From: a virus
Taxonomy: Duplodnaviria > Caudoviricetes
Length of the DNA: 39,786 nt
Direction: 5' to 3' (one strand)
Virus record (IMG/VR): IMGVR_UViG_3300032318_001790
Location: 1-39,786 of that record
This document shows positions 6,872 to 39,678 of the stretch, one piece after another; position 1 is the stretch's first letter; the number at the start of each line of letters is the position of its first letter. Made by a program: the position numbers and the translations under genes. Under the pieces are notes generated by a model. That model made no database searches. It saw only the letters and a list, made by a program, of their open reading frames with translations, and was not told the origin of the DNA.

Positions 6872-6889
6872 AATATTTTTTTCTTTCTT

Positions 6890-9943: not shown

Positions 9944-10474
9944 TCATAAAAACATCCAAATTAAAGTTGCAAATAATCCTGCGCCACCAATCGGTACTAA
10001 TAAATTATATGGTGGAGGAACAAAGGCCATAAATTGTAATCCTAATAAGACACCGCCAGCAGCCGCAATAAGTGCAGCAATTAATTTTAAACGATGATAG
10101 CGTTTAATGGTATCGTTATATTTTTCAAACCACTGAAAGGCCTCCTCTTGTTTTTGCACGCCCCATTCCTTTAGGGCGTCAGCCTGCTTTTGAACTACGG
10201 AAACATTATTAACTGCATCTGCAACTTTTTTGTTTGCATTAGTTAAATTATTTTTTAATTTTGCGTTTTCAGACTTTGCGGATTTTAATTCAGAACCTAA
10301 TTCTTTAATAATTTCCTGCGCTTCCTGTACGCTAGTTTTATTGTTCGCCTGTACAACCTTTGTGGCAACGGGCTTTGTAGTTACAACTTCTTTTTTTTCT
10401 TTTTTATTCCATGGCCAAGCCATCGCACTGGAGGCTAAACATAATATAATAATTATTGGTAATAATTTTTTCAT
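9944..10474 (-). CDS. Exported coiled-coil protein with two C-terminal TM helices (spanin-like)
   Basis: Signal peptide MKKLLPIIIILCLASSAMA, long coiled coil, two hydrophobic segments at the C-terminus; inside lysis cassette. Confidence 0.5.
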   Translation of the reverse strand: MKKLLPIIIILCLASSAMAWPWNKKEKKEVVTTKPVATKVVQANNKTSVQEAQEIIKELGSELKSAKSENAKLKNNLTNANKKVADAVNNVSVVQKQADALKEWGVQKQEEAFQWFEKYNDTIKRYHRLKLIAALIAAAGGVLLGLQFMAFVPPPYNLLVPIGGAGLFATLIWMFL

Positions 10475-11202: not shown

Positions 11203-12087
11203 TTAAGGTAGATTTAGACCGATGCCAAGGGTGCGTTTATAGAGATCCCGAACAATAGATACATTTACTTGCCAGTTGCTAATGACGCTGACAAACGCAA
11301 TTTTACCGATAGGGGCTAATGATGAATTGCCTCGACCGTTGCCCAATATCAATACTTCTGAAGCATTAGAAATTGCCCCATAAGGCGACTGCGCTGCGTT
11401 TGAGCCGTTGGCAATTTGTGTTGTGTCGCGGAAATGTCGATTACCTTGCACGTTGCTATTAGCTGCCTCATTGTTTTCCCGCTGCGTTGTCCACATGCGC
11501 CAAGTGCCCGCTGCCAACGCTTGATTTGATTGAGTGGCATAATTAACGAAGCCGACTTGTGTAGGTCCCTGAATATTTGTACCCGGGCTTTCGTTGGCAG
11601 ACCGTGTATTGATGCCCCCATATCGGTTGTTGGCTGTTGCTCCTCCGCCAAATAAAAATTGGTCTTGAGCGTTCCCTGCACCTACAATTTCACCGAAGTC
11701 GGAGACAACCATAACACTACTATTTGAACGAATATCATATCCTCCATTTGTTGACCAAGGGACGGAGATGTGACGACTTCTGTTGGTAGTTGGGTTTGTG
11801 GCAAACTCAACCCCATACTGAGACCAAGTTGGTGAGTTTACCATGGTGCCATTAAACACCCCCAGACCACCTAAACTATAAACCCCACTACCTGTTCCTG
11901 CATTATGAATACCTCTCATAGGCCAACAGACCATAGAATTCCATAAACCAAGCTTTTTAACCCCTATAACAAACTTATTAATCTGCTTTAAAGGCCCTGG
12001 GAGTATAGTAACACCTGAGCCAGACTTGACCCTCTGGGCGTATCTAATGGCGTCTATATCTAATCCGTATGTTCTTGTTCTTGGCAT
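11203..12087 (-). CDS. Virion receptor-binding / LamG-like protein, paralog 5
   Basis: Shares RTYGL...FV.G.K.LGLW..MVCWP...SLGGLG.FNGTMVNSPTW and C-terminal LYK.TLG.GL.LP with neighbours. Confidence 0.6.
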   Translation of the reverse strand: MPRTRTYGLDIDAIRYAQRVKSGSGVTILPGPLKQINKFVIGVKKLGLWNSMVCWPMRGIHNAGTGSGVYSLGGLGVFNGTMVNSPTWSQYGVEFATNPTTNRSRHISVPWSTNGGYDIRSNSSVMVVSDFGEIVGAGNAQDQFLFGGGATANNRYGGINTRSANESPGTNIQGPTQVGFVNYATQSNQALAAGTWRMWTTQRENNEAANSNVQGNRHFRDTTQIANGSNAAQSPYGAISNASEVLILGNGRGNSSLAPIGKIAFVSVISNWQVNVSIVRDLYKRTLGIGLNLP

Positions 12088-12092
12088 ATGTG

Positions 12093-12890
12093 TTATGGTA
12101 AGTTTAGCCTTTTACAAATTGTCTGTTTTAATAATGTAAATAAAGAGGCGTATACAGAAGATGTTAAACCGGTATTTAACCACCAACATAAAGCATAAGT
12201 GCCTAAGCAAATACCGCTAGAACTATCCCCTAACCTAAATTCTCTTCCAGGGTATGTAATAGGTAATAGAGTTGTAGTGGTAAAGGTTGAATTTAATGCA
12301 GTAAAGCTTGTACCTGTTTGAGTACCTAACCCTACAGCTACAGATGCCATTGTTAAGGGTCTAGACCCAAAATCAGATAAAGCTGTACCTAAACGTCTTA
12401 AAGTATTCGACGATGGATTATAAGCATCAAAGCCTAGACCTCTTGAGGTAGCAGGCACATCAGTGGTAATAAGTCTTTGTGCCTGATTAGCATTTGAATC
12501 AAGTCTAAAAACACCCCCAATAGCACCAGAAAGTGCAAATCCATCAGGGGTAAAATTTGTTTGCATTCTATTACTACCATCAGTATTAGTAGCATTTAAA
12601 CCACTTAAACCCCATGTTAAAGCCGTTCCCGAAATTGTTCCGGGGTAAGATCCAAACCCACCTAATGTTAAAACTGTTGTACCTGTCCCTATATTTTGTG
12701 TACTCTGTAAAAGCCAACATACAAAATAATTCCAAATTCCTAAATCTTTTAAACCAATCACAAAATTATCAATATCAGCTGCATCAGACTTCTGAATATT
12801 CGCCAAGCCATTAAGAGACCTATAAGTGTTAACTCTGTTGAGATAGCGCTTGGTATCTACGTCAAATTGATATGTTCTAGTAGTACTCAT
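12093..12890 (-). CDS. Virion receptor-binding / LamG-like protein, paralog 4
   Basis: Same conserved N- and C-terminal motifs (FVIGLKDLGIWNYFVCW; LLKQTICKRLNLP), divergent centre. Confidence 0.6.
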   Translation of the reverse strand: MSTTRTYQFDVDTKRYLNRVNTYRSLNGLANIQKSDAADIDNFVIGLKDLGIWNYFVCWLLQSTQNIGTGTTVLTLGGFGSYPGTISGTALTWGLSGLNATNTDGSNRMQTNFTPDGFALSGAIGGVFRLDSNANQAQRLITTDVPATSRGLGFDAYNPSSNTLRRLGTALSDFGSRPLTMASVAVGLGTQTGTSFTALNSTFTTTTLLPITYPGREFRLGDSSSGICLGTYALCWWLNTGLTSSVYASLFTLLKQTICKRLNLP

Positions 12891-13678
12891 GGTAGGCCTA
12901 AACCTTTCCCGATTGTTTGTTTATATAATGCGTAAATAAAGCTATGCTGAGATGCTGTGGCTATTACATCTCTAATAGCCCAAAAAAACGCGACCCGTAT
13001 TGTGGTATCACTAGCATTATTTGCAGCCACTATAGTGTTTGAGTTGTTTCCAGCTGCATCGTCCCAACCTATGATTACTGAGACTATAGAGGGAGTTACA
13101 AAGGTACCATTTGCATACCCTTCGGCTGTTAACCTACCAGTAATAGATACAGACTTAAAAATAAAATCAGTTGTAACAGTTGGAGACCAAGTATAGTAGT
13201 TAGAATTATCACTGTTACGAATAGTAAAGCTTCGACTGTTTATGGCATCTCCGTCAGCATACCGTCTTGGGAAAGTTCCCCAAAAACGAGTACGCATAGT
13301 TGCTGCAGTATTTGCTTTATCATTAACCATACCAAAAGTTAAAGGACTAGAAGGGGTATCAAGACCCGATCTTGTAATTTCTTGTGTAGTACTAGTAAAA
13401 CCAATTCCACTATTACTCCAAGTCGGGGAATTTACCATACTTCCATTATAGACTCCCAACCCACCTAAGCTTAAAACTGTAGAACCTGTTCCAATATTAT
13501 GAATACTTCTCATAGGCCAACAAACTATATTCTGCCACAAATTCAACTGCTTTAACCCCTTCACAAAATTATCCACATCATTAACATCTGTACCAGCTAG
13601 TTCTTTGCCATAAGCATACAACCTTCTCAAGTATTGCCTTGTCTCGTTTTGTAGACCATATGATTTGGATGAGATCAT
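12887..13678 (-). CDS. Virion receptor-binding / LamG-like protein, paralog 3
   Basis: FVKGLKQLNLWQNIVCWPMRS...; LYKQTIGKGLGLP. Confidence 0.6.
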   Translation of the reverse strand: MISSKSYGLQNETRQYLRRLYAYGKELAGTDVNDVDNFVKGLKQLNLWQNIVCWPMRSIHNIGTGSTVLSLGGLGVYNGSMVNSPTWSNSGIGFTSTTQEITRSGLDTPSSPLTFGMVNDKANTAATMRTRFWGTFPRRYADGDAINSRSFTIRNSDNSNYYTWSPTVTTDFIFKSVSITGRLTAEGYANGTFVTPSIVSVIIGWDDAAGNNSNTIVAANNASDTTIRVAFFWAIRDVIATASQHSFIYALYKQTIGKGLGLP

Positions 13679-14478
13679 AAACCGAACCTGCCTTTCATTG
13701 CATTATAGTTTTGAAGGATTTCTGGTGCTGTAAGGACTTGGTTATATATACTTACATTTGAGACACTGCCCTGGGATTGTTGTACCGCCCAATGTCTTCT
13801 TCCAACTTGCAATTTACCTGTAATATTTACAGAAGCTGGTATTGTTCCAGTATATGAAACTGTTTGATTGATACCATTTAAATAGATTTTTAATCGATTT
13901 GAATTACCGGTTAAAGTACCGTCAAAGGTAAAAACTATATTTTGCCACCCATTTATATTATAGTTTACAGCTCCATAATCTCCAAAAGTAAAATTTATAT
14001 AAATAGTTTGTGGGTATATTTCCATACCAAAGGGGTTACTATATACTAAAACCGCTGGAAAGCTAGTTTGAGCGTTAGTTTTATTGAGCCATGCGCTCAT
14101 AGTTAATTTAGAAATATTACCTGCTGTATAACTGGATTCTATATAATCATTGCCAGAGTTAAATGTAAACGCTCCTTTATTATCGGATATATAATTAACT
14201 GAATTAATGAGAACTGCATTATTAGACCCAGCTAAATCTTTCCAAACTGTGCCCCCTGCCGGATAACTGTCACTAACTCCAGCATCAAGCCACACTACCA
14301 AGCCACCTAAAACAATTGGAGAATTGGCTAAAAATGTTGTATTAAGATTTCTTGTCTTTCTATTAATAACAAAATCATTCAGAGTCTTTATATTAGTTTG
14401 ATTAACTATACTCTTAGCCTCACAAGCTTTCAAATACTCTTTGGTCTCTTTTTCTAAATTGTAAAATCTTTTAGCCAT
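13675..14478 (-). CDS. Concanavalin A-like / LamG domain virion protein, paralog 2
   Basis: GLVVWLDAG..SY..GGTVWKDL, TMSAW, WQNIVFTFDG, KIYLNG, IYNQVLT..EI.QNYNAMKGRFGL is a typical phage LamG domain; N-terminus shared with the array (YNLEKETKEYL). Confidence 0.8.
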   Translation of the reverse strand: MAKRFYNLEKETKEYLKACEAKSIVNQTNIKTLNDFVINRKTRNLNTTFLANSPIVLGGLVVWLDAGVSDSYPAGGTVWKDLAGSNNAVLINSVNYISDNKGAFTFNSGNDYIESSYTAGNISKLTMSAWLNKTNAQTSFPAVLVYSNPFGMEIYPQTIYINFTFGDYGAVNYNINGWQNIVFTFDGTLTGNSNRLKIYLNGINQTVSYTGTIPASVNITGKLQVGRRHWAVQQSQGSVSNVSIYNQVLTAPEILQNYNAMKGRFGL

Positions 14479-14481
14479 ATG

Positions 14482-15378
14482 TTAGGGTAGTCCAAGACCT
14501 TGGCCGAGGGTGGTGCGGTAGATTTCGCGGATGGCCGCGCTGTCTTGATAGCTGTTGACCACGGCAAAGAACGGCATGGTCATGTTGGCGTATAATCCAT
14601 CAGAGCGGCGACCCAGATAAAGCCGCGACAACGAAGGCATGGAGGCAGATGCGGTCATGGTTGTTGTAGAGTCATCAACCCGAAGCAGGGATGTCTCTGG
14701 GTTTTGCCTTACGGAAAAACTCGCCCAGCGCATCGCGCCCAAGGCTGCGGAGCGCGTTCCGCTTGTTACCGTGGGCGCACTGTTGACCGTCTGAAAATAC
14801 CAAGTGTTCCCGCTGCTTTCTGGCGCAAGCCCGACAGACGGAACAAAGCTCGATCCATTATCGTGACTAAAAACGCTGCGAAAGACTTGCGAGGCGAAAT
14901 TCACTGCGGTCATCCATGTTGTGGGCAGCGTTGCAGGCACAGTAATCGTAATGTGAGTGCTGCCAGAGTTTGTGAACTCCATCCCATCCGCCCCGCGAAC
15001 TGGCGTATTGACCATTGTCCCATTGAACGTTCCCAGCCCACCCAACGAATACATGATGTCGCCTGTCGCGGCATTCTGCGAACTCCGCAACGGCCAACAG
15101 ACCATATTCTGCCAAAGACCTAAAGTCTTCATACCCCGGACAAACAAACATACTTCAAATCTACCTAAGAGATTATTAATCGAAGCTCTTTGAAAATAAC
15201 TATCAGCATCCCGGTCATTGAAGCCCAGACCGTATTGAGACCAGACCCCTGACTTCTTTAAACTTTCCACCCTGTCGTTTAAGGTCTTTACCAGAGAGGG
15301 GGTTACGATAACAGAAGTCTCGTTTTGGATTCTATTACAATAGGCCTTAACCTCATTCTGTACGCCATAAGATTTCAT
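14482..15378 (-). CDS. Virion receptor-binding / LamG-like protein, paralog 1
   Basis: Conserved family motifs; N-terminal helical unit appears duplicated (VESLKKSGVW / VRGMKTLGLW); 3' two-thirds markedly GC-rich. Confidence 0.6.
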   Translation of the reverse strand: MKSYGVQNEVKAYCNRIQNETSVIVTPSLVKTLNDRVESLKKSGVWSQYGLGFNDRDADSYFQRASINNLLGRFEVCLFVRGMKTLGLWQNMVCWPLRSSQNAATGDIMYSLGGLGTFNGTMVNTPVRGADGMEFTNSGSTHITITVPATLPTTWMTAVNFASQVFRSVFSHDNGSSFVPSVGLAPESSGNTWYFQTVNSAPTVTSGTRSAALGAMRWASFSVRQNPETSLLRVDDSTTTMTASASMPSLSRLYLGRRSDGLYANMTMPFFAVVNSYQDSAAIREIYRTTLGQGLGLP

Positions 15379-16301: not shown

Positions 16302-17867
16302 TTATAGTGCAATAGCATAAGCAATTGCTATTTTTTTTGTATTTTCTATTTGAGTTTTAACATTATATTGGCCACTTAATATTAAATCTCCTGTTATATT
16401 TACATTATTTGTGAAACTTTTTACCCCACTAATTGTTTGATTACCATAAAGTAAAACTGAACTGCCGCTAAGTGAATTAATTTGAGTTTGAAATATTCCA
16501 GTATTTAAAGTTTCATTAAACCAAAGGCCACTTGCTGAATTGTATCTTAGTATATCGTCATTATTTAAAACGTTTTTATGATTTATATTTACGTTATGAA
16601 GTTCTTCCAACTCAAAACCATTTTGAATTTTAACAAAGACTTCTCCTTGATTAGCATGCTTTCTAGTAAGTACTCCAAGATAAACAAGATGATTAGGTGC
16701 GTATGGTTTATTAGCTAAACCAAAAATTAAACTTCCAGTGGGACCAAGCCATATTGGATCTCCTTCTTCTCCAGCATTTGTATTAAAACCTTGCAGCAAA
16801 CCTTCAGTTACTATTGTTCCTTGAGCGTTTTGAGCTAAACTAGTTTGATATACTAACCCTAAAGTTTTTGATGATGTTTGTTCTCCACTATTGCTTGCTA
16901 ATTTAACTAAAATATTTGTTCCCGCCGCACTAGATACATAAACTGGTTGGCCTTTGTATATTGTAGAGCCATTATCATTTTTTATATTTATTTGTGCGCT
17001 ATAAAGTACTCCACTTATTGTCGTATTCACTTCTCCGCTTAAAAGAACAGGAATTGTATTAACTGTAGGTCTAGTTGTAAAATCTTTTAAACCAGATATT
17101 GTTTGATTACCATATAATAACACAGAAGATCCACTTAGAACATTAATTTTATTATCAAGCGTTGAACCAGTATTTGCAAGATTACTACTCGTAGCATATG
17201 AACTTAGATCAACGCCTGTAACGAATCCGCTTGGATTACTACGCGGATAAAAATCGCCTGTTTGACCTGTAGTGACATATGCCGAAAGATTTACGCCCGT
17301 AACGAATCCGCTTGGATTACTACGCGGATATAAACTCGACGTGTCTACGCCCGTAACGAATCCGCTTGGATTACTACGCGGATATAAACTCGACGTGTCT
17401 ACGCCCGTAACGAATCCGCTTGGGTTACTACGCGGATATAAACTCGACGTGTCTACGCCCGTAACGAATCCGCTTGGATTACTACGCGGATAAAAATCGC
17501 CTGTTTGACCTGTAGTGACATATGCCGAAAGATTTACGCCCGTAACGAATCCGCTTGGATTACTACGCGGATAAAAATTAGCGTTCGTATCGCCGCTCAA
17601 ATTATTAATTTGGTTTTGTATATTTCCACTCGCACCCAAAATACTTACGTTCTCGACGTTAGAAAGCCCAACATCATTTTTATCAATAACTACCCACCCA
17701 ATTTTACCATTAACACTTTGAACTGGAGCGTAATCTTCCTGTACCTGAACAGATATAGAAGATAATATATTTTCTACGTTAACTGTTTGAACTTGAGTTA
17801 ATTGAGAATCAAATTCTTGATAAACTTCAATAATTAATTCATTTAAGTCTATATCAAATATATTCAT
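16302..17867 (-). CDS. Tail fibre protein with internal repeats
   Basis: VQSVNGKIG.V...K.DVGL.NVEN fibre motif, six YPRSNPSGFVTGV repeats, GNQTISG.K.F repeats, C-terminal AIAYAIAL. Confidence 0.75.
   Translation of the reverse strand: MNIFDIDLNELIIEVYQEFDSQLTQVQTVNVENILSSISVQVQEDYAPVQSVNGKIGWVVIDKNDVGLSNVENVSILGASGNIQNQINNLSGDTNANFYPRSNPSGFVTGVNLSAYVTTGQTGDFYPRSNPSGFVTGVDTSSLYPRSNPSGFVTGVDTSSLYPRSNPSGFVTGVDTSSLYPRSNPSGFVTGVNLSAYVTTGQTGDFYPRSNPSGFVTGVDLSSYATSSNLANTGSTLDNKINVLSGSSVLLYGNQTISGLKDFTTRPTVNTIPVLLSGEVNTTISGVLYSAQINIKNDNGSTIYKGQPVYVSSAAGTNILVKLASNSGEQTSSKTLGLVYQTSLAQNAQGTIVTEGLLQGFNTNAGEEGDPIWLGPTGSLIFGLANKPYAPNHLVYLGVLTRKHANQGEVFVKIQNGFELEELHNVNINHKNVLNNDDILRYNSASGLWFNETLNTGIFQTQINSLSGSSVLLYGNQTISGVKSFTNNVNITGDLILSGQYNVKTQIENTKKIAIAYAIAL
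17218..17573. repeat. Six near-identical in-frame repeats (spacing 81, 54, 54, 54, 81 bp)
   Basis: gtaacgaatccgcttggattactacgcggata starts at 17218, 17299, 17353, 17407 (one mismatch), 17461, 17542. Confidence 0.95.
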
Positions 17868-32438: not shown

Positions 32439-32763
32439 GTTAAATTAAACTTATAGAAATAAAATAGGCCCCCGAATTTTTTAGATTTGATTATTATTAT
32501 TTAAACTCATTTGTCCCCGAAGTTCTAGAAAAGGGTGGGGGGTACATATATATAAGAATAGGGATGTTTATACATAAACATAGTAATATGTATATAGAAT
32601 ATAGACTTATAAGAATAGCGGGTTAAATTAAATTAATTAAAATAAAAGATGAGGAGATTGAAATTTCACCCCCCCGGACCTAAAAAATCAAACGCTTGTT
32701 CGAATTTTCTCAAAAATAGGGGGGGCATCAACAAAAATACTTTGCAGAATCGTAAAAAAATCC

Positions 32764-32791
32764 TTGTGTTTTGGCCGTCCTGTGGTAGAGT
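32764..32791 (+). promoter_or_regulatory. Leaderless sigma70-type promoter P1
   Basis: TTGTGT-N16(TGTGG)-TAGAGT, 6 nt to ATG 32798, A-tract upstream. Confidence 0.7.
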
Positions 32792-32797
32792 GTAAGC

Positions 32798-32974
32798 ATG
32801 ATTAAGAACCAATACAGCACAGCAGAGTTGACCGCCGCCCTTGGCAATCCCTACTTCGTCGGCCTAAACCTTCGCGTTTGGAGAGTCGCAACGAAACGCG
32901 GATCCTACGAGTTCAAAGCCAGCCGCACCCCAAGGACTGACTTCTGGAGCGTCAACAAAAAAAAGTTACGCTAA
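32798..32974 (+). CDS. Small early protein, family A (58 aa)
   Basis: Not in ORF track; MIKNQYSTAEL...LNLRVWRVATKRGSYEFK...; paralog of 34949-35131. Confidence 0.8.
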   Translation: MIKNQYSTAELTAALGNPYFVGLNLRVWRVATKRGSYEFKASRTPRTDFWSVNKKKLR

Positions 32975-32988
32975 TCGAAAAAAATCCT

Positions 32989-33016
32989 TTGACTTTCGCC
33001 GCAACTCTGATACATT
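32989..33016 (+). promoter_or_regulatory. Leaderless promoter P2
   Basis: TTGACT-N16(TGA)-TACATT, 6 nt to ATG 33023. Confidence 0.75.
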
Positions 33017-33484: not shown

Positions 33485-33658
33485 ATGACAAAGATACCTC
33501 TCAACATGGATGCTCGTTCACTCGTAAAGGAAATCAATCGCAGCAAGCGCAGGACTATGACAAAGCGCACTATGACAAACAATGCTATGACATACATTGG
33601 AGAGGCCCTTGCCGTGGTGCTCATCTTCATGCTTGGCGTTGCGATCCTTTCTCTGTAA
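33485..33658 (+). CDS. Small early protein, family C, with C-terminal TM helix (57 aa)
   Basis: Not in ORF track; MTKIPLNMDARSLVKEINRSKRRT...ALAVVLIFMLGVAILSL; stop lies inside element E1. Confidence 0.65.
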   Translation: MTKIPLNMDARSLVKEINRSKRRTMTKRTMTNNAMTYIGEALAVVLIFMLGVAILSL

Positions 33659-33732
33659 GCTGTTGTAAATCAACGACTTACGACGGAGGGCCGGGCGCGC
33701 GAACGTAACCCCTTGATAATCAAGCACTTACG
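33654..33732. repeat. 79-bp double-palindrome element E1 (core inverted)
   Basis: tgtaagctgttgtaaatcaacgacttacg + acggagggccgggcgcgcgaa + cgtaaccccttgataatcaagcacttacg. Confidence 0.95.
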
Positions 33733-33743
33733 AATAGGTGCGA

Positions 33744-33772
33744 ATACTACCACAACACGCACAAGATGTCAA
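33744..33772 (-). promoter_or_regulatory. Reverse sigma70-type promoter facing E1
   Basis: Minus strand TTGACA-N17(TGTGG)-TAGTAT; predicted +1 near 33737. Confidence 0.6.
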
Positions 33773-33816
33773 GCAAAAAAGATAAAAAAAATTTCACATA
33801 ATCGTAAAAAAATCCC

Positions 33817-33844
33817 TTGCTTTTTGCGCGTCTTGTGGTATTCT
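33817..33844 (+). promoter_or_regulatory. Leaderless promoter P4
   Basis: TTGCTT-N16(TGTGG)-TATTCT, 6 nt to ATG 33851. Confidence 0.75.
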
Positions 33845-33850
33845 GTATAC

Positions 33851-34123
33851 ATGAAAAAAGAAATAAACACCATAGAAGAAGCCAAAAACCTGTCCGTCAT
33901 GGACTTCATGGAACGCACTCCGTTGGAGCGTAAGCTGATCGACGAACTCAAGCGCGTCGAATCCCAAGTCGAACTCTTGCAAGAGTGGCTCGAAAACTCT
34001 CACAGAACGTGCGGCCTGTTGCGTGATGCGCGTGACAGCTATCGTCGTCAACTCGGCATCTCGTCCGATTGGGACACGATGGAATCAGTCCGTGACAAAT
34101 ATGACGCCAGACATGGCGGCTAA
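33851..34123 (+). CDS. Small coiled-coil early protein (90 aa)
   Basis: Start moved from 33713 to ATG 33851 on promoter spacing. Confidence 0.75.
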   Translation: MKKEINTIEEAKNLSVMDFMERTPLERKLIDELKRVESQVELLQEWLENSHRTCGLLRDARDSYRRQLGISSDWDTMESVRDKYDARHGG

Positions 34124-34132
34124 AAAAACTTC

Positions 34133-34161
34133 TTGCCTAAACTCTCAACTCAACCTATCCT
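34133..34161 (+). promoter_or_regulatory. Leaderless promoter P5
   Basis: TTGCCT-N17-TATCCT, 6 nt to ATG 34168. Confidence 0.65.
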
Positions 34162-34167
34162 AACAAC

Positions 34168-34383
34168 ATGAACATCATCAACGACGACTTCAATACGCAA
34201 CCGCAATCCGACGAATACGCTACCGAGCACGAGGACGTGCGCGGCACGTTCGCCGTCGAACCTGCCGTCGAGCAGGAACCGGAACCGCAACCCTACGATG
34301 GGTGCGAGGGCCAATGGGCTGGCGATGGGTCGGGCTTCGACGACCTCGCTGACTTGGGCGAGCAGGAGGGTCACGACTGGTAA
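34168..34383 (+). CDS. Very acidic small protein, family D (71 aa)
   Basis: IINDDFNTQPQSDEYATE motif shared with 38370-38504. Confidence 0.8.
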   Translation: MNIINDDFNTQPQSDEYATEHEDVRGTFAVEPAVEQEPEPQPYDGCEGQWAGDGSGFDDLADLGEQEGHDW

Positions 34384-34387
34384 CACT

Positions 34388-34618
34388 ATGACACAAAACG
34401 AAAACATCATGAAATCTCTGCACGCGCTTGCCAAGCAAGAGCAAACTTTGCAGGCTCAAGAGGCTGAAATGACAGAGCTAAAAAATCTTTTGTCTCGCGC
34501 CCTGTATACTATCACAGCACACGAATACAAGCTGAACATCCTTTGCGAAACCAACATTGTTCTTTCGCGTGAAGTGCAAGCAATGCGCGATCAGCAATTT
34601 TCTTTCGGAGTCAACTAA
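34388..34618 (+). CDS. Small coiled-coil protein (76 aa)
   Basis: ATG 4 nt after previous stop; MTQNENIMKSL... Confidence 0.7.
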   Translation: MTQNENIMKSLHALAKQEQTLQAQEAEMTELKNLLSRALYTITAHEYKLNILCETNIVLSREVQAMRDQQFSFGVN

Positions 34619-34619
34619 C

Positions 34620-34772
34620 GTGAGCAAAATAATTATGACAATCGACGTGCGCCCACTCGCGCGCGAGATTGAGCGCAGCGTTCGAAGGACGACTTGTCGT
34701 CCTTCATTCGCCATGCGTGTCAAGAAAAAATTCGCGCGCAAGGCAAAGTTTTTTAGCGGTTGGTCTGAGTAG
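34620..34772 (+). CDS. Small basic protein, family C (50 aa)
   Basis: GTG start; SKIIMTIDVRPLAREIERSVRRT resembles 33485 ORF; stop overlaps start of E2. Confidence 0.6.
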   Translation: MSKIIMTIDVRPLAREIERSVRRTTCRPSFAMRVKKKFARKAKFFSGWSE

Positions 34773-34849
34773 TAAAGCGTTGAATATCAACGACTTACGG
34801 CGGCGCGCCCCGCCGCGCGACATAAGTGCTTGAAAATGAACGACTTATG
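34771..34849. repeat. 79-bp double-palindrome element E2
   Basis: agtaaagcgttgaatatcaacgacttacg + gcggcgcgccccgccgcgcga + cataagtgcttgaaaatgaacgacttatg. Confidence 0.95.
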
Positions 34850-34859
34850 CAATATGCTA

Positions 34860-34876
34860 CGCAAGTGCCATGCCAA
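34860..34876 (-). promoter_or_regulatory. Sigma54 -24/-12 promoter facing E2
   Basis: Minus strand TTGGCATGGCACTTGCG; exact GG-N10-GC spacing; +1 at 34849. Confidence 0.7.
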
Positions 34877-34914
34877 CTTTGCCAAAAGCGCAAAAATAAA
34901 AATAAAAAAATCCC

Positions 34915-34942
34915 TTGCGTTTTTGCAGTCCTGTGGTATTCT
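34915..34942 (+). promoter_or_regulatory. Leaderless promoter P6
   Basis: TTGCGT-N16(TGTGG)-TATTCT, 6 nt to ATG 34949. Confidence 0.75.
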
Positions 34943-34948
34943 TTAACC

Positions 34949-35131
34949 ATGAAAAAGAAATACTACACCAGCGCGGAAATCATCGAGTTCGCCACAAAAA
35001 ACAGTGCGGCTTGCGCGTTCGCCTCTTTGAGTTTGCGCGTGTTCAAATACTGGACGGCGAAAGGTTCTTACGAGGTCAAATTCCATCGGGTTGAGCCGTT
35101 GGTCTGGCAAAAGAAAATCGTAAAGAAATAA
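34949..35131 (+). CDS. Small early protein, family A (60 aa)
   Basis: Start moved to ATG 34949; YTSAEI...LSLRVFKYWTAKGSYEVK. Confidence 0.8.
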   Translation: MKKKYYTSAEIIEFATKNSAACAFASLSLRVFKYWTAKGSYEVKFHRVEPLVWQKKIVKK

Positions 35132-35140
35132 AAAAACCTG

Positions 35141-35169
35141 TTGACAAAATCAATCCTCTAACCTATTCT
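35141..35169 (+). promoter_or_regulatory. Leaderless promoter P7
   Basis: TTGACA-N17-TATTCT, 6 nt to ATG 35176. Confidence 0.8.
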
Positions 35170-35175
35170 TTAACT

Positions 35176-35355
35176 ATGAAAAATAAAACACCACAAAAAA
35201 GCCAAATCTGGAAAGTCGGAACGCGCTGCTTCCGCATAGTGCGCATCGAAGGCGGTCAGGCCGTTGTGCGCCATCACGAAGAATTCGGAAAGTTTTTTCT
35301 GAATGACTTGCGCCCTGCAAGTGCCGAAGAAGTTCGCGCATACTTCAAAAAATAG
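35176..35355 (+). CDS. Small early protein (59 aa), SH3/beta-barrel-like pattern
   Basis: Not in ORF track; MKNKTPQKSQIWKVGTRCFRIVRIEGGQAVV...LRPASAEEVRAYFKK. Confidence 0.75.
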   Translation: MKNKTPQKSQIWKVGTRCFRIVRIEGGQAVVRHHEEFGKFFLNDLRPASAEEVRAYFKK

Positions 35356-35356
35356 T

Positions 35357-35384
35357 TTGACAAAACAGATTTTTCTGATAGATT
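35357..35384 (+). promoter_or_regulatory. Leaderless promoter P8
   Basis: TTGACA-N16(TGA)-TAGATT, 6 nt to ATG 35391. Confidence 0.75.
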
Positions 35385-35390
35385 AAAAGC

Positions 35391-35570
35391 ATGAAAGAGA
35401 AAAAATCCTACATGGTAACGGCGCGTGACTCACGCGAAAAAGAAATCGTTCACACCACGACTGTAAAATCATATGGTATCCGTTGGGCGATTGAAGATGC
35501 CTCAAAAGAGTTTTCGGACACTATTCCAGAACCCTTCATCGAAATCGTGAAGGTTGAAAAAATCTCTTGA
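35391..35570 (+). CDS. Small early protein, family B (59 aa)
   Basis: Not in ORF track; MKEKKSYMVTA...YGIRW...EIVKVEKIS. Confidence 0.8.
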   Translation: MKEKKSYMVTARDSREKEIVHTTTVKSYGIRWAIEDASKEFSDTIPEPFIEIVKVEKIS

Positions 35571-35602
35571 CCCTAACCACAAAAACAAACAAAATAGAAA
35601 CC

Positions 35603-35692
35603 ATGTCAATCTGGATACCACTCTTTTACCTGTGCATCATGCCTGCCGCTTGCGGTTTCTTAATCCTCTGGGCTGATTCCAGAAAAAAATAA
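35603..35692 (+). CDS. 29-aa single-TM peptide
   Basis: MSIWIPLFYLCIMPAACGFLILWADSRKK after weak promoter TTGACC-N17-CAAAAT (35567-35595). Confidence 0.55.
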   Translation: MSIWIPLFYLCIMPAACGFLILWADSRKK

Positions 35693-35696
35693 TCTC

Positions 35697-35927
35697 ATGA
35701 AAAAATACATCACATTCGACAATATGCTTTTGGCAACAAGTGCTGCCCTCATCTTGTCCCTGCTAACTTCACTTCTGGTCATCGCCGTTGCTTCACAGCA
35801 AAAATGGTTCGATACTAATCACGAACTTCAAAACGATGTCCAAACAATGTTTGAGCATCTTGAAAAACCGCTCGCCATGAATACCTCTGGCTATCCCTCC
35901 TACCCAAATCATCCCAAAAATGCCTAA
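35697..35927 (+). CDS. Small membrane-anchored protein (76 aa)
   Basis: N-terminal hydrophobic helix. Confidence 0.7.
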   Translation: MKKYITFDNMLLATSAALILSLLTSLLVIAVASQQKWFDTNHELQNDVQTMFEHLEKPLAMNTSGYPSYPNHPKNA

Positions 35928-35935
35928 ACAATAAT

Positions 35936-36142
35936 ATGATAACACCAAACATCCAAAGAGCCCTCGAATCAAACGGCGTTCGTTTCTATGCCAAAGACTT
36001 CCTCATGGAAGGAATGCGGAAAGACTGCGTTGACGCTGTGCATGACGCGCACCTTGTTTACAAGTTGCTGAAAGAACGCATGGAGAAAATGCTTGCCATC
36101 GAACCCACTGAATCCGAACAGCAATACCCTCAACACTCATGA
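35936..36142 (+). CDS. Small early protein (68 aa)
   Basis: In operon, ATGA overlap with next gene. Confidence 0.7.
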   Translation: MITPNIQRALESNGVRFYAKDFLMEGMRKDCVDAVHDAHLVYKLLKERMEKMLAIEPTESEQQYPQHS

Positions 36143-36330
36143 ATAAAAAACAAATCATCACCGCGTGTGACGCGTCAAACAGTGTCATACAAAAAATTAA
36201 ATCTGCGCTGGGCCTTCAGAAAAAAGAGCCATCGCTTCTTTGTCATAGTCTCGCGCACCTCAACGGCGCGACATGGCTTGAAAGAATCTCGTCAAATGGA
36301 ATCTTGAACGAATACATCGTAAGACGCTGA
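36139..36330 (+). CDS. Small early protein (63 aa)
   Basis: Stop TGA inside E3. Confidence 0.6.
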   Translation: MNKKQIITACDASNSVIQKIKSALGLQKKEPSLLCHSLAHLNGATWLERISSNGILNEYIVRR

Positions 36331-36396
36331 TAATCAAGCACTTACGGCGGCGCGCCCCGCCGCCCAGCGTAAGTCGTTGAAAATCAACACGTTACG
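36318..36396. repeat. 79-bp double-palindrome element E3
   Basis: cgtaagacgctgataatcaagcacttacg + gcggcgcgccccgccgcccag + cgtaagtcgttgaaaatcaacacgttacg. Confidence 0.95.
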
Positions 36397-36406
36397 CAAA
36401 ACATGG

Positions 36407-36423
36407 AGCAGGAACCGTGCCAA
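36407..36423 (-). promoter_or_regulatory. Sigma54 -24/-12 promoter facing E3
   Basis: Minus strand TTGGCACGGTTCCTGCT; +1 at 36396. Confidence 0.75.
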
Positions 36424-36501
36424 CAATGAGTGTCATAAAAATTCAAACGCCTGTTTGAAAAACGTCAACAAAAATACTTTCAGCTAATCGAAAAAAATCC
36501 C

Positions 36502-36529
36502 TTGTGTTTTTGGCAACCTGTGGTATTCT
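36502..36529 (+). promoter_or_regulatory. Leaderless promoter P10
   Basis: TTGTGT-N16(TGTGG)-TATTCT, 6 nt to ATG 36536. Confidence 0.75.
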
Positions 36530-36535
36530 TTAATT

Positions 36536-36775
36536 ATGAAAGTTACCAAAGTCGAACTACTCGACGCACTACTACAAGCTCGCACCGCTCTTGCAAAAGA
36601 CATTAGCGACTTTAACAAAAGCCGCAACGGATTCTTTGCCAAAGAATTTCGCGCTTCACTCCGCGAAAAAATCGCGGCTCATCGTATCCTTTCCCACATC
36701 GACACGATTGACGCTGAACTCTATTCGTTCGACGCTCGCACCCGCGCAAGGGTCAAAAAAGCTCTTGCCAAGTAA
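36536..36775 (+). CDS. Small basic helical protein (79 aa)
   Basis: ORF at the fixed distance from P10. Confidence 0.75.
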   Translation: MKVTKVELLDALLQARTALAKDISDFNKSRNGFFAKEFRASLREKIAAHRILSHIDTIDAELYSFDARTRARVKKALAK

Positions 36776-36800
36776 GGCAAACTCTGCAAAAATAAACACC

Positions 36801-37481
36801 ATGAAACTACTCGCAACCAACACCAAATTGGAAAAGGGCGCAAGCTACGGCTGGCGCACACTCGGACTCTCACTCTCTCCCGCCAGTAAAAGCGGAAAAC
36901 AATTCTGTCCGCATCGTTCTCCAGGGTGTGAATTTGTTTGCCTTGATGAATCGGGCATGGGCATTTTTCAGAACGTGCAAGACGCACGCCTTGCAAAATC
37001 GCGTTACTTCATCGACAACCGCAACACATTTGTCGCGCAATTAAACCGCGAGATTCACAACGCAGAAAAACTTTCCACGCGCACGAAAATTCCCGTTGCT
37101 GTTCGTCCGAATGTCTTGTCTGATCTTCCGTGGCATAACCTCATCGACATGGCGCGTTTTCCTTCCATTCAGTTTTACGACTACACGCCGAACCTTGAGC
37201 GCATGATGCAATTCCTGCGCGGCGAGTTGCCGAAAAATTATCATCTTACTTTCTCGCGCAAGGAAAATAATCAGCACAAGGTTCATGCTGTCATCGCGGC
37301 TGGCGGCAACGTGGCCGTGGCGTTTAATCGCTTACCGGAAACATACCTTGGCTTGCCTGTCATCGACGGCGACAAAAGCGATCTGCGCTTTCTCGATCCC
37401 AAAGGTGTCATAGTTGGACTCAAAGCCAAGGGCAAAGGTAAAAAAGATGCCTCTGGATTCGTGGTGCAAGTTGGCGTATAA
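36801..37481 (+). CDS. GP88-family protein (Cys-cluster, radical-SAM-like), 226 aa
   Basis: Start moved to ATG 36801; NTKLEK, LSLSPA, CPHRSPGC...CL, VRPNVLSD..W, QFYDYT, NYHLTFS, IDGD.SDLRFLDP.GVIVGLKAKG recognised as the phage gene-product-88 family. Confidence 0.75.
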   Translation: MKLLATNTKLEKGASYGWRTLGLSLSPASKSGKQFCPHRSPGCEFVCLDESGMGIFQNVQDARLAKSRYFIDNRNTFVAQLNREIHNAEKLSTRTKIPVAVRPNVLSDLPWHNLIDMARFPSIQFYDYTPNLERMMQFLRGELPKNYHLTFSRKENNQHKVHAVIAAGGNVAVAFNRLPETYLGLPVIDGDKSDLRFLDPKGVIVGLKAKGKGKKDASGFVVQVGV

Positions 37482-37490
37482 TGAACACCT

Positions 37491-37562
37491 ATGGAAATAA
37501 TCTGTCTGCTTGTCGTCGTGGCGGCTTGTGCCTTTGCAATCAATCAAAATCAAAAACTATGA
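37491..37562 (+). CDS. 23-aa hydrophobic peptide
   Basis: MEIICLLVVVAACAFAINQNQKL; ATGA overlap with next ORF. Confidence 0.4.
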   Translation: MEIICLLVVVAACAFAINQNQKL

Positions 37563-37717
37563 CACTCAACCTAATCGCACGAAAAAATCTTTTCCGCTTG
37601 TCGGAAGGACTGTTCAGCCTCGGACAAAAATCGGAACGTCACGGCTTTATGACACTCTCGAAAATGTTTGTCATAGGGTGGGAGCGTTGCCTTGACTTGC
37701 GCGACAGGCTGCGGTAA
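37559..37717 (+). CDS. Small early protein (52 aa; alternative start 37481)
   Basis: MTLNLIARKNLFRLSEG...; TAA stop abuts E4. Confidence 0.55.
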   Translation: MTLNLIARKNLFRLSEGLFSLGQKSERHGFMTLSKMFVIGWERCLDLRDRLR

Positions 37718-37796
37718 CGTAAGACGTTGAAAATCAACGGGTTACGACGGCGCGCCCCGCCGCCCGTCGTAAGTGCTTGACGTTCAGCAACTTATG
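37718..37796. repeat. 79-bp double-palindrome element E4
   Basis: cgtaagacgttgaaaatcaacgggttacg + acggcgcgccccgccgcccgt + cgtaagtgcttgacgttcagcaacttatg. Confidence 0.95.
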
Positions 37797-37949
37797 CATT
37801 TATAAAAAATAGAAAATCGTCAGTAGAAATAGATAAATAATTACTATGTCTTAATTGTTACTATTTGCCCCATATCTATTTCGCAATTTTCTGGCAAACT
37901 TGTCAAGCATAAAAATACAAAAATAAAAAATAAAAATACAAAAAATATC

Positions 37950-37977
37950 TTGTGTTTTTTCAGATGTGTGATATTCT
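37950..37977 (+). promoter_or_regulatory. Leaderless promoter P12
   Basis: TTGTGT-N16(TGTGA)-TATTCT, 7 nt to ATG 37985, phased A-tracts upstream. Confidence 0.7.
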
Positions 37978-37984
37978 TTCTTTG

Positions 37985-38179
37985 ATGAATAAACAAACCA
38001 CCAAGTGCCCCAAGTGCGGGGGAAAAGCCACATCAACCTACGAGCCACCCTATCAGGAATACGCTGGAGCCAGCGTGCAGGGCGGCTACTACTACGTCGA
38101 GTGCGCGTGCGGTCACGAGGGCACCCAGAAGGCCAGCCTAGAGGACTACAACTGGCAAGAGAACACAAGGGGTTGGTAA
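37985..38179 (+). CDS. Small Zn-finger protein (64 aa)
   Basis: CPKCGG...ECACGH; stop inside E5. Confidence 0.75.
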   Translation: MNKQTTKCPKCGGKATSTYEPPYQEYAGASVQGGYYYVECACGHEGTQKASLEDYNWQENTRGW

Positions 38180-38253
38180 CCCCTTAATTCTCAATCAGTT
38201 ACGCTGGCGCGCCCCGCCGCGCGGCGTAAGTGCTTGATATTCAACACGTTACG
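38175..38253. repeat. 79-bp double-palindrome element E5
   Basis: ggtaaccccttaattctcaatcagttacg + ctggcgcgccccgccgcgcgg + cgtaagtgcttgatattcaacacgttacg. Confidence 0.95.
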
Positions 38254-38263
38254 CAAAATGTAG

Positions 38264-38280
38264 AGCAGGAAGCGTGCCAA
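38264..38280 (-). promoter_or_regulatory. Sigma54 -24/-12 promoter facing E5
   Basis: Minus strand TTGGCACGCTTCCTGCT; +1 at 38253. Confidence 0.75.
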
Positions 38281-38335
38281 GTCCGAATCTTTTTTTCGTC
38301 AACAAAAATACTTTCTAAAAATGCAAAAAAAATCG

Positions 38336-38363
38336 TTGCACTCTCGCGCCCTGCTGCTATTCT
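38336..38363 (+). promoter_or_regulatory. Leaderless promoter P13
   Basis: TTGCAC-N16(TGC)-TATTCT, 6 nt to ATG 38370. Confidence 0.7.
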
Positions 38364-38369
38364 TTACCC

Positions 38370-38504
38370 ATGCAAGCGAACTCCATCATCACTGACGACT
38401 TCAACACGCAAATCCAAAGCGACGAGTTTGCCTCGGAATTTGAGGCTTGGCTCGACGAGCAGGAACTGAAATACTGGCAGGACATCGACGCTCGCGGAAA
38501 TTAA
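38370..38504 (+). CDS. Very acidic peptide, family D (44 aa)
   Basis: Not in ORF track; MQANSIITDDFNTQIQSDEFASEFEAWLDEQELKYWQDIDARGN. Confidence 0.75.
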   Translation: MQANSIITDDFNTQIQSDEFASEFEAWLDEQELKYWQDIDARGN

Positions 38505-38508
38505 TTTT

Positions 38509-38685
38509 ATGACAAACACAAACCCACTCAAAGGCCTCGTCTCCGTTTGCTGCGGAGCCGAACACGACATCAACGCCGAACACGGCATCAAAAACGAAAC
38601 CGCAATCGGTGGCTGCTCGGCTTGCGGACGCTACTCGGAGTTTGACATCTTCGAGAACTTCGTTGAAAACAACCTTGACCTCTAA
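38509..38685 (+). CDS. Small Zn-binding protein (58 aa)
   Basis: Not in ORF track; VSVCCGA...GGCSACGRYSEF. Confidence 0.75.
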   Translation: MTNTNPLKGLVSVCCGAEHDINAEHGIKNETAIGGCSACGRYSEFDIFENFVENNLDL

Positions 38686-38703
38686 ACCCTCAACACCTAA
38701 ACT
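38675..38703 (+). promoter_or_regulatory. Short-leader promoter P14
   Basis: TTGACC-N17-TAAACT, 9 nt to ATG 38713. Confidence 0.6.
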
Positions 38704-38712
38704 CTAAAACTT

Positions 38713-39159
38713 ATGAACCAAGCAAACATCGTAATCAGCGCATACGGCAACGGCATTGCCGTTGGCCTTCACGGCACACGCGAAGAAATCGAAAAAAACT
38801 TCAACCGCTTCTTCAACTGGGGCGCAACTGGAATCGGAGAACTCGGAGACTACTTACACGACCTCTCGGATAACTTCTCCTACTTCCTCTCCACGGAAAC
38901 GGATATGCTTCGCGCTATGACATACGAGACTATGACAAAGTGGCAGGACTCTCCGGTAAGCGAGCAATACAAAGCGCGCCCACGTTTCTACAAGAAACCA
39001 AACGGAACAAAGTTTCGCACCGATGCCGTAGGTGCTGCGCGTGACGAATACGAATCTTTCCCGCGTGAAAGTTTCATGCTCCAGATGAAATCACCCTCAC
39101 ACATCTATCAGCAACTCGACGGCGGTGCGCCTTCGTGGAGTAGCGAAACGGAGGACTAA
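38713..39159 (+). CDS. Hypothetical protein (148 aa)
   Basis: Clean ORF after P14. Confidence 0.75.
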   Translation: MNQANIVISAYGNGIAVGLHGTREEIEKNFNRFFNWGATGIGELGDYLHDLSDNFSYFLSTETDMLRAMTYETMTKWQDSPVSEQYKARPRFYKKPNGTKFRTDAVGAARDEYESFPRESFMLQMKSPSHIYQQLDGGAPSWSSETED

Positions 39160-39162
39160 TAT

Positions 39163-39612
39163 ATGGAAATACCACCCATTAAATTATTCGATGTTATTCT
39201 TAATCCAATTCTTAAAAAATCATGGATTCATTTTGAGATTGAAGCTACGGACGAGGCAGGAAGAAAGTATTATGAAAGCTCTCATAGCTATGGCGTTTTT
39301 GCTCCTCCTTATCCTGCTTTCCCATGCTATGCTGGAGAAAATCATCTTACAAATAAACATCCTTATGGTCATACATTAGAACCTTTTGATGTTAATAAAA
39401 TAATGAGAAGACTTAACTCTTACGAATGGATCGCTGGGGTTAAATCAATTAAGTTTAGCAATCAAGTTTATGTTTGTCATAAAACTTATATTGTTTGGCA
39501 ATTTGCAAATAAAAAAGTAGAAGGAACATCCCATTTTGAAATAAAAGAGCTACCTAAAGATAAAAAAAATGTTTATGTTTGTGATGAACAAAGATATCTC
39601 TTAAGTGATTGA
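39163..39612 (+). CDS. Hypothetical protein (149 aa), AT-rich
   Basis: Clean ORF; composition differs from neighbours; stop inside E6. Confidence 0.7.
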   Translation: MEIPPIKLFDVILNPILKKSWIHFEIEATDEAGRKYYESSHSYGVFAPPYPAFPCYAGENHLTNKHPYGHTLEPFDVNKIMRRLNSYEWIAGVKSIKFSNQVYVCHKTYIVWQFANKKVEGTSHFEIKELPKDKKNVYVCDEQRYLLSD

Positions 39613-39678
39613 TAATCAAAGACTTACGGCGGCGCGCCCGGCGAATCGTCGTAAGTCATTGAGCCACAGGACTTTGTG
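39600..39678. repeat. 79-bp double-palindrome element E6 (right end degenerate)
   Basis: cttaagtgattgataatcaaagacttacg + gcggcgcgcccggcgaatcgt + cgtaagtcattgagccacaggactttgtg. Confidence 0.85.

Follow-up and report, generated by a model that had tools for sequence, protein, structure and literature searches.

The attC sites of integrons vary in length, and the cassettes that they close are promoterless and served by a common promoter. The early genes of phage T7 carry RNase III sites, long irregular hairpins with internal loops, at the ends of their cistrons. In T4-type phages, composite promoter/stem-loop repeats termed PeSLs occupy hyperplastic regions, and the reports describe them as terminators that also take part in modular shuffling (PMC2839356, PMC4122927). 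For the bacterial interspersed mosaic elements (BIMEs), the proposed roles are binding of IHF, gyrase and Pol I, topological insulation, termination and mRNA stabilisation (PMC3333891). Here we describe a repeat family that shares features with each of these systems, namely a 79-bp double-palindrome element found six times (E1 to E6) among the early genes of a tailed-phage genome fragment. The fragment, hereafter the window, is the entire IMG/VR virus record IMGVR_UViG_3300032318_001790 of 39,786 bp, with an estimated completeness of 26%.

Our preferred reading, to which we assign a probability of roughly 0.4, is that these elements form a phage repeat family marking the 3' boundary of every early unit, that they are likely bound as duplex DNA by a sequence-specific and possibly IHF-like bending protein, and that they would act as boundary or insulator sites.

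Six elements close six early gene modules

An initial annotation of the window had placed elements at 33654, 34771, 36318, 37718, 38175 and 39600, and reading of the sequence confirmed all six positions. Each element is 79 bp long, and the reported layout of a 29-bp palindrome, a 21-bp GC core and a second 29-bp palindrome is present in 6/6. A repeat search grouped them as one family, with copies 67-100% identical to the reference copy. When the pattern GTAAG-N3-TTGA-N3-TCAA-N3-STTAC was allowed up to three mismatches, it gave 22 matches, corresponding to 11 palindromes read on both strands. All 22 fell within the six elements, whereas 100 shuffles gave an expectation of 0.08. In E6 the right arm, which would be the twelfth palindrome, is degenerate.

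The elements begin on, or a few bases from, the stop codon of the last gene of a module. This overlap, also part of the initial annotation, was borne out against the open reading frame (ORF) ends at 33658, 34772, 36330, 37717, 38179 and 39612: TAA lies at element positions 3-5 in E1 and E5, TGA lies at positions 11-13 in E3 and E6, and the stop is at the edge of E2 and E4. An A-rich tract and a TTGnnn-16-TATTCT promoter follow each of E1-E5, and the proposed unit of promoter, small genes and element proved to be real and conserved. The six elements are as follows.

33654..33732, + strand: E1, with a divergent core; overlaps the TAA of ORF 33485-33658
34771..34849, + strand: E2, abutting the stop of ORF 34635-34772; inner arms of CG/GC type
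36318..36396, + strand: E3, with the TGA of ORF 36139-36330 at element positions 11-13; inner arms of GC/CG type
37718..37796, + strand: E4, beginning right after the TAA of ORF 37481-37717
38175..38253, + strand: E5, overlapping the TAA of the zinc-ribbon ORF that ends at 38179
39600..39678, + strand: E6, last of the + strand block, with the outer right half-site replaced by the hairpin CCACAGGACTTTGTGG and a weak T tract

The hybrid form of E6 is kept in relatives at the same position.

The repeat family is confined to phage early regions

An exact pattern over the left inner arm and core retrieved 49 loci on 24 other IMG/VR contigs, and a profile built from the six copies marked 105 element places in the window and in the stretches around those 49 loci. 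We aligned ten early regions, those of the window and of nine relatives (G001-G009). They hold 96 elements, 5-14 per region and spaced 0.17-2.5 kb apart, of which 89 are oriented with the genes. The complete relatives of ~170 kb carry 11-14 copies each. A whole-genome scan of G001, which is complete and terminally redundant (166.5 kb), put 11/11 copies at 17.9-32.1 kb, and the palindrome pattern was likewise confined in G002, where backwards-pattern controls gave 0-1 matches.

Among 158 loci from a metagenome scan, the profile confirmed a full element in 119, and the remaining 39 were chance matches. A scan of bacterial genomes yielded seven distinct loci. Four of these were chance matches in high-GC genomes, and the three real ones were all on short contigs (1.2-1.6 kb) of metagenome-assembled genomes (MAGs), which are probably mis-binned phage. 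A host family of repetitive extragenic palindromic (REP) sequences was rejected, because the bacterial scan gave real elements on these three contigs only. Public runs sharing words with the region are mostly labelled freshwater. An Rfam covariance-model scan found no family match, its only result being a chance snoRNA hit outside the elements, and no description of the repeat family turned up in the literature searched. The family is real, widespread and, as far as the Rfam and literature searches reach, undescribed. Extra inverted copies occur 170 bp from a forward copy: G006 has two (about 6758-7006 of the joined region), and three copies alternating in orientation are found in G009.

Elements persist behind terminators and tRNA genes

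In the distal half of the early region, elements lie 10-25 nt behind strong canonical hairpin-plus-T-run terminators, and a canonical terminator was present in 8/10 of the element upstreams folded from three relatives. One element of G001 overlaps the last 12 nt of tRNA-Cys (10323-10395 of the extracted stretch) and another abuts tRNA-Met (14210-14283 of the same stretch), so that the 3' ends of these tRNAs form or adjoin the outer left half-site. Because they follow terminators and tRNAs, the elements are kept even where termination is already provided. Downstream of the last element of G001 and its promoter lies an array of four tRNAs.

In the window, no canonical + strand terminator was found at 5/6 module ends (E1-E5). 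The GC-rich hairpin with a T-run that defines an intrinsic terminator was not found in E1-E5 themselves, and these phages employ canonical terminators at other places. The hairpins of the elements are not followed by a U-tract, except for the weak T tract of the replaced arm of E6, which alone scores as a weak terminator-like site. Contigs from the RNA libraries of two studies span E4 and E5, which is weak evidence because DNA carry-over is possible. A promoter is found downstream of every element except those of the E6 type, and in the window 68-154 bp separate the element end from the -35 hexamer.

Sequence is conserved, base pairing is not

The anatomy of the element was derived from 111 unique copies in an ungapped register. 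The spacing is constant in all of them, and positions A4, T11, A19, T25, T26, A54, A55, T61, A69 and T76 are invariant; with T25/T26 and A54/A55 invariant, the length of the core is fixed at 21 bp. Each palindrome comprises two 13-bp half-sites, CGTAAGTssTTGA, about a 3-bp A/T centre, which gives an overall arrangement of 13-3-13 / 21 / 13-3-13. The four half-sites, each read on its own strand, have one consensus, in which A4 and T11 are invariant in each. Conservation is highest in the inner half-sites (17-29, 51-63) and at core positions 34-43 (CGCGCCCCGC, 82-99% each), and it is lowest in the outer left half-site, where coding sequence or the end of a tRNA overlaps the element.

We examined three kinds of pairing scheme, namely a hairpin for each palindrome, a long hairpin between left and right, and ten core-hairpin registers. 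None of them showed covariation, including the core registers i+j = 74-84, and complementarity at variable positions never rose above that of column shuffles. Positions 6, 24, 56 and 74 vary between G and C independently of one another. Moreover, the inner arms avoid perfect complementarity, as their variable dinucleotides are anti-complementary: the combinations (CG,GC) and (GC,CG) occur 21 and 20 times in the 96 elements, compared with 1 for (CG,CG) and 0 for (GC,GC). This avoidance is not due to shared descent alone, because the arm type can differ at orthologous positions. Wobble-type mismatches are mirrored between the two palindromes, with 149 A.C versus 80 G.T in the left and 132 G.T versus 94 A.C in the right, a bias that would fit degenerating DNA half-sites and not one transcribed RNA strand. 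Taken together, the lack of covariation, the mirrored wobble bias and the retention of elements behind terminators favour recognition of the duplex DNA by a protein.

A candidate host protein of the IHF type

The consensus of IHF is WATCAANNNNTTR, and the half-site fits it. Ten of the 16 exact matches to this consensus in the window are within the six elements, whereas 4.4 would be expected over the entire window. An exact match occurs at least once in 95/111 copies, most commonly at the left inner half-site (68/111). The consensus has four N positions, three of which (21, 22, 24) rank with the most variable positions of the half-site, position 23 being conserved, and position 27, which is R in the consensus, is only A or G in the 111 copies. 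The motifs of FNR, Fis, Fur, CtrA, LexA, TyrR and dif were compared by eye and set aside, as their spacing or key bases do not fit. A factor acting on immediate-early units should pre-exist in the cell, which points to a host protein.

We therefore picture, as a working model, a host protein present at infection that would bind and bend each palindrome, leaving a rigid GC core between the two bends. That this protein is of the IHF type is a guess based on the fit of the half-site. The resulting nucleoprotein complex could separate neighbouring, strongly transcribed units, either topologically or as a roadblock. Of the roles offered in the initial annotation, a protein-bound insulator or roadblock would fit best, whereas a dedicated site-specific recombination system was not supported, as described below.

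Several points weigh against this model. The fit to IHF was noticed post hoc, and an exact match occurs at only 1-2 of the four half-sites per element, most of the others missing at the A/T centre. The early region of G001 holds 11/51 of the genome-wide IHF matches, about 2.5 times its share. The conserved and oriented GC core is not explained by IHF; a role of this core in gyrase binding or Z-DNA formation is speculation. No HU/IHF family member was found in the phage records (0/5), and an alphaproteobacterial host is only hinted at. The orientation bias (89/96) and the position at stop codons would suit an RNA element as well. Loss of gene adjacency across elements, described in the next section, is inseparable from the adjoining repeated spacer and promoter. 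Finally, the element copies are related by descent and recombination, so that the counts given here are indications and not P values.

Early modules are shuffled between relatives

The alignment of relatives upheld one part of the idea that gain, loss and reordering follow the elements: whole units are gained, lost and reordered, with some breakpoints inside elements, but most breakpoints lie elsewhere. Two features of the window illustrate such changes.

37797..38174, + strand: single-gene cassette between E4 and E5 (promoter and zinc-ribbon ORF)
39163..39612, + strand: AT-rich ORF (31% GC; neighbours 45-50%) directly before E6

The 457-bp unit of E4, promoter, zinc-ribbon gene and E5 is absent from G001, G002, G003, G004 and G007, and the flanking alignments overlap inside one element. 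In G005, the same unit sits before the 8-10-9 module and not after it. The modules that end in gene families 3 and 5 have the opposite order in the window and in G001/G007. A homologue of ORF 39163-39612 (80% DNA identity) is found in a different module of G001, again just before an element, and the homology stops in the element core; G006 has something else in place of this ORF.

Gene adjacency between genomes is kept in 106/427 cases (25%) across an element and in 430/776 cases (55%) where no element intervenes. For this count, mini-genes were called heuristically, and families 1 and 14 (ORFs over a conserved intergenic repeat), minus-strand ORFs and singleton ORFs were dropped beforehand. 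Homology ends fall within elements in 124/736 clusters, compared with 47 expected, but the other 612 (83%) are outside elements, and genes are swapped inside modules too. The homology-end statistic is inflated by matches between paralogous element-plus-promoter units, as is evident from the asymmetry of the ends, with 218 left ends at element positions 1-24 and 43 right ends at positions 73-79. We therefore lean towards giving the adjacency count more weight.

The initial annotation had noted that the window encodes no recombinase, and indeed no match was found among the ORFs scanned. Searches with PF00589 (tyrosine recombinase), PF00239 (serine recombinase) and PF01797 (Y1 transposase) gave matches in 0/5 records, which include three complete relatives, and the positive controls were detected, in 14/14 cases for PF00589. 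G001, the sole relative annotated by Pfam, encodes RecA-like, RuvB-like and PD-(D/E)XK proteins. Sequencing runs were examined as assembled contigs (20). In other samples, the contigs have breaks or joints at elements as well as at the borders of genes, and the joint sides at elements are at most 43 nt long. A joint between E4 and E3 that goes back 1443 nt, seen in two studies, was considered as a sign of a circle and not counted, since its sides at the repeat measure only 43 nt. Element, spacer and promoter together form a repeat of ~200 bp. Because this repeat is present 11-14 times, the modules could be deleted, inserted and reordered by the homologous recombination of the phage, and exchange between such units is the simplest reading of the shuffling.

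A 28-nt extension follows nearly half of the elements

In about 45% of cases, the element is extended by another 28 nt. The motif [GC][TC]GCCAA occurs exactly 21 nt past the element end in 34/95 elements and never at another offset. Three extensions are found in the window, with C(G/A)TGCCAA boxes at 34869-34876, 36416-36423 and 38273-38280.

34850..34877, + strand: extension after E2, 28 nt at fixed distance, with the CATGCCAA variant
36397..36424, + strand: extension after E3, 28 nt, with CGTGCCAA at +20..+27; reverse complement TTGGCACG-N4-CTGC
38254..38281, + strand: extension after E5, 28 nt, with CGTGCCAA at +20..+27

On the minus strand the extension reads TTGGCAYG-N4-YTG(C/A). In the reverse complement of 41 unique extensions, TTGGCA and, 10 nt on, TG are invariant (41/41), and the final C is present in 19/41. 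The motif occurs nowhere else in the complete genome of G001 above control.

Weighing of alternative explanations

The elements could instead act at the RNA level, with two or three hairpins that stabilise the upstream mRNA, serve as a processing site of the RNase III type, or terminate transcription without a U-tract. Their co-orientation with the genes, their start on or beside the stop codon and the lack of canonical + strand terminators at the module ends closed by E1-E5 are in line with this explanation. So are the predicted RNA folds of the six copies (-27 to -37 kcal/mol, z-scores of -1.3 to -4.1) and a conserved 2x2 mismatch in the inner-arm helix, which recalls the internal loops of T7 RNase III sites. 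However, variable positions pair at or below chance without any covariation, the wobble bias is opposite in the two palindromes, and the elements persist behind strong intrinsic terminators and right after tRNAs, with no U-tract behind any hairpin. Contigs from RNA libraries also cross E4 and E5, a weak argument given possible DNA carry-over. We consider an RNA element unlikely. A selfish or neutral repeat resembling REPs or miniature inverted-repeat transposable elements, homogenised by gene conversion and with no role for the phage, would explain the multiple copies, the evident recombination between them, and the inverted and partial copies. Yet conservation is position-specific, and invariant bases beside near-random ones argue for selection and not for homogenisation. 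Furthermore, even divergent genomes keep strictly to one copy per unit end and to its orientation and length, the search with PF01797 found no transposase in the five records, and no real chromosomal copy was found in bacteria, only those on the three MAG contigs of 1.2-1.6 kb. This explanation is quite improbable.

The 28-nt extension raises another alternative, in which it would be an antisense promoter of the sigma-54 type (-24/-12) reading into the element, with the two palindromes as activator (enhancer) sites. The sigma-54 consensus is TGGCACG-N4-TTGCW, or GG-N10-GC with TGGCAC and TTGC blocks, and sigma-54 promoters classically use IHF, which counts in favour of this idea. The single fixed offset of [GC][TC]GCCAA (34/95) and the invariant TTGGCA and TG (41/41) form a two-block pattern that resembles this consensus. 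Nevertheless, the -12 C is present in under half of the extensions (19/41), the motif is unused elsewhere in complete G001, the palindromes are downstream and not upstream of the putative start, and over half of the elements have no extension. The sole PF00158 match, considered as a sigma-54 activator, turned out to be a RuvB-like ATPase, leaving no activator. The chance that this explanation holds is slim. Slightly slimmer still is that of a site-specific recombination site of an integron-like or pdif-like cassette system. The inverted 13-bp arms about an asymmetric core would suit such a site, as would the presence or absence of the E4-E5 cassette with its junction in a single element, its different place in G005, the different order of whole modules in the window and in G001/G007, and the inverted extra copies 170 bp apart in G006 and G009. 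Against it, PF00589, PF00239 and PF01797 are missing from the five records, three of them complete, although a host enzyme could act in their place. Every cassette has its own promoter, 612/736 breakpoint clusters are outside elements with swaps inside modules, and the arm combinations expected from core crossovers that join the two arm classes are nearly absent (1/42). The crossover regions of lox, FRT and dif measure 6-8 bp, and a 21-bp core is far beyond this range. The dedicated recombination site suggested in the initial annotation was thus not supported, on account of the missing enzymes in the three complete relatives, the promoters, the breakpoints and the core length. A duplex-bound boundary site remains the explanation that we prefer.

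Early promoters and genome setting

Each of the five promoters behind E1-E5 is located as follows.

33817..33844, + strand: early promoter TTGCTT-16-TATTCT; ATG at 33851, 6 nt after the -10 hexamer, leaderless mRNA predicted
34915..34942, + strand: early promoter TTGCGT-16-TATTCT; ATG at 34949
36502..36529, + strand: early promoter TTGTGT-16-TATTCT; ATG at 36536
37950..37977, + strand: early promoter TTGTGT-16-TATTCT; an ATG at 37985
38336..38363, + strand: early promoter TTGCAC-16-TATTCT; ATG at 38370

Between 32764 and 38372, ten early units have their first ATG exactly 6 nt past the -10 hexamer of a TTGnnn-16/17-TAnnnT promoter (ATGs at 32798, 33023, 33239, 33851, 34168, 34949, 35176, 35391, 36536 and 38370). 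This arrangement predicts leaderless mRNAs as a uniform early design. A conserved box, CGTCAACAAAAATACTTT, was noticed upstream of several early promoters (32950-32996, 36463-36509, 38297-38343 and 32726-32772), with the palindrome TTCAAACGCCTGTTTGAA ahead of it in some spacers.

The window derives from an uncultured phage of ~170 kb, the size being that of its complete relatives. Its minus strand carries structural and lysis genes (terminase, endolysin, tail-like proteins) up to ~28.6 kb; PhoH, Hsp20 and a glycosyltransferase follow these late genes, and then come the small + strand early genes. GC content per 1-kb window is 42-51% in the early genes, compared with ~30-45% elsewhere in the fragment. 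No relative emerged when the DNA of the early region was searched against 50,697 records of cultured phages. With the terminases of large Bacillus and Clostridium phages, that of the window shares only ~23% identity, and a scan of 30 large ORFs of the window gave no confident structural-family match beyond this distant terminase and weak generic tail/virion matches. The closest endolysin homologues are in Paracoccus, cyanobacterial and Roseobacter phages, and the closest GP88 homologues are early-region genes of Pelagibacter and other alphaproteobacterial phages, which together hint at an alphaproteobacterial host.

The late and structural genes on the minus strand (1135-30041) have no Shine-Dalgarno sequence, and in many of them a TATAATA-like motif precedes the ATG by a few bases. 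These motifs may be late promoters that give leaderless or near-leaderless mRNAs. Five consecutive ORFs of like size (263-298 aa) at 11203-15378, with DNA repeats at ~0.8-kb and ~1.6-kb spacing, suggest a paralogous gene array. Tandem 54/27-bp repeats, three of them 98-100% identical, lie at 17157-17577 within a 521-aa tail-fibre-like ORF. In G001, the region of ~34-40 kb and other stretches encode UvdE, a SET-domain protein, three YopX-like proteins and a DnaE-type polymerase, as well as a DnaB-like helicase, a class II ribonucleotide reductase, ThyX and RecA-like and RuvB-like proteins. The same genome also gave a weak match to sigma-70 region 2.

Significance and comparison with known systems

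In large phages, the early regions house the genes for takeover and for action against the host, and it is these genes that evolve fastest. The present example comes from an uncultured, widespread aquatic phage lineage without a cultured relative. A sharply defined element offers a probe for pulling down its binding protein as well as a marker of cassette boundaries in metagenomes, and the uniform, predicted leaderless cassette design hints at how host translation is taken over. A more far-reaching idea, which we hold to be doubtful, is that a nucleoprotein on four half-sites represents a new class of phage boundary element, in which a host bender of the IHF type, perhaps with gyrase on the core, would insulate leaderless cassettes while the array shuffles without a recombinase.

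Integron attC and pdif arrays also consist of small gene cassettes that end in palindromic sites of uniform orientation. They differ from the present array, in which the modules have their own promoters, the core is 21 bp long and no recombinase was found in five phage records; the fixed length of the element also contrasts with the variable length of attC. The RNase III sites of T7 are similar in that early cistrons end in long, irregular hairpins interrupted by internal loops, whereas the elements described here show no covariation, also occur behind terminators and are accompanied by one promoter per module. The BIME-1, or RIB (RIP), elements of E. coli likewise form intergenic mosaics at the 3' ends of transcription units, and they too unite an IHF consensus with palindromic GC-rich DNA (PMC3333891). 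In BIME-1, as described there, two GC-rich REPs flank an IHF site, whereas here two IHF-like palindromes flank a GC core. In addition, our elements are phage-borne and have no sequence similarity to those described there, and their IHF site is putative, by consensus only.

The closest parallel is found in the PeSLs (PMC2839356). Both are repeated composite motifs between small ORFan genes of a plastic early region, and both combine a strong sigma-70-like promoter, an AT-rich upstream tract (here behind E1-E5) and a GC-rich palindromic part. According to the same source, indels and replacements between relatives are bounded by the motifs, as is the E4-E5 indel here, though many of our breakpoints lie elsewhere, and the shuffling is ascribed to homologous recombination in both cases. 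For the PeSLs, mini-circles are described as products of exchange between adjacent motifs. The claim of a candidate undescribed system stands in that the searches of Rfam and the literature gave no match, but the concept was foreshadowed by the T4-type PeSL cassettes (PMC2839356). There, the stem-loop lies within, overlaps or sits beside the promoter, is variable in sequence and acts as a terminator in reporters. In contrast, the element described here stands apart from the promoter as a 79-bp unit of constant length that ends 68-154 bp before the -35 hexamer in the window, with four conserved half-sites, an oriented core, no sign of selection for pairing and, save for E6, no terminator features. 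The phage is also not T4-like, because the scan of 30 large ORFs gave no confident structural-family match. If our reading holds, these elements would join the T4 PeSLs as a second case, different in mechanism, of regulatory punctuation that also serves for shuffling.

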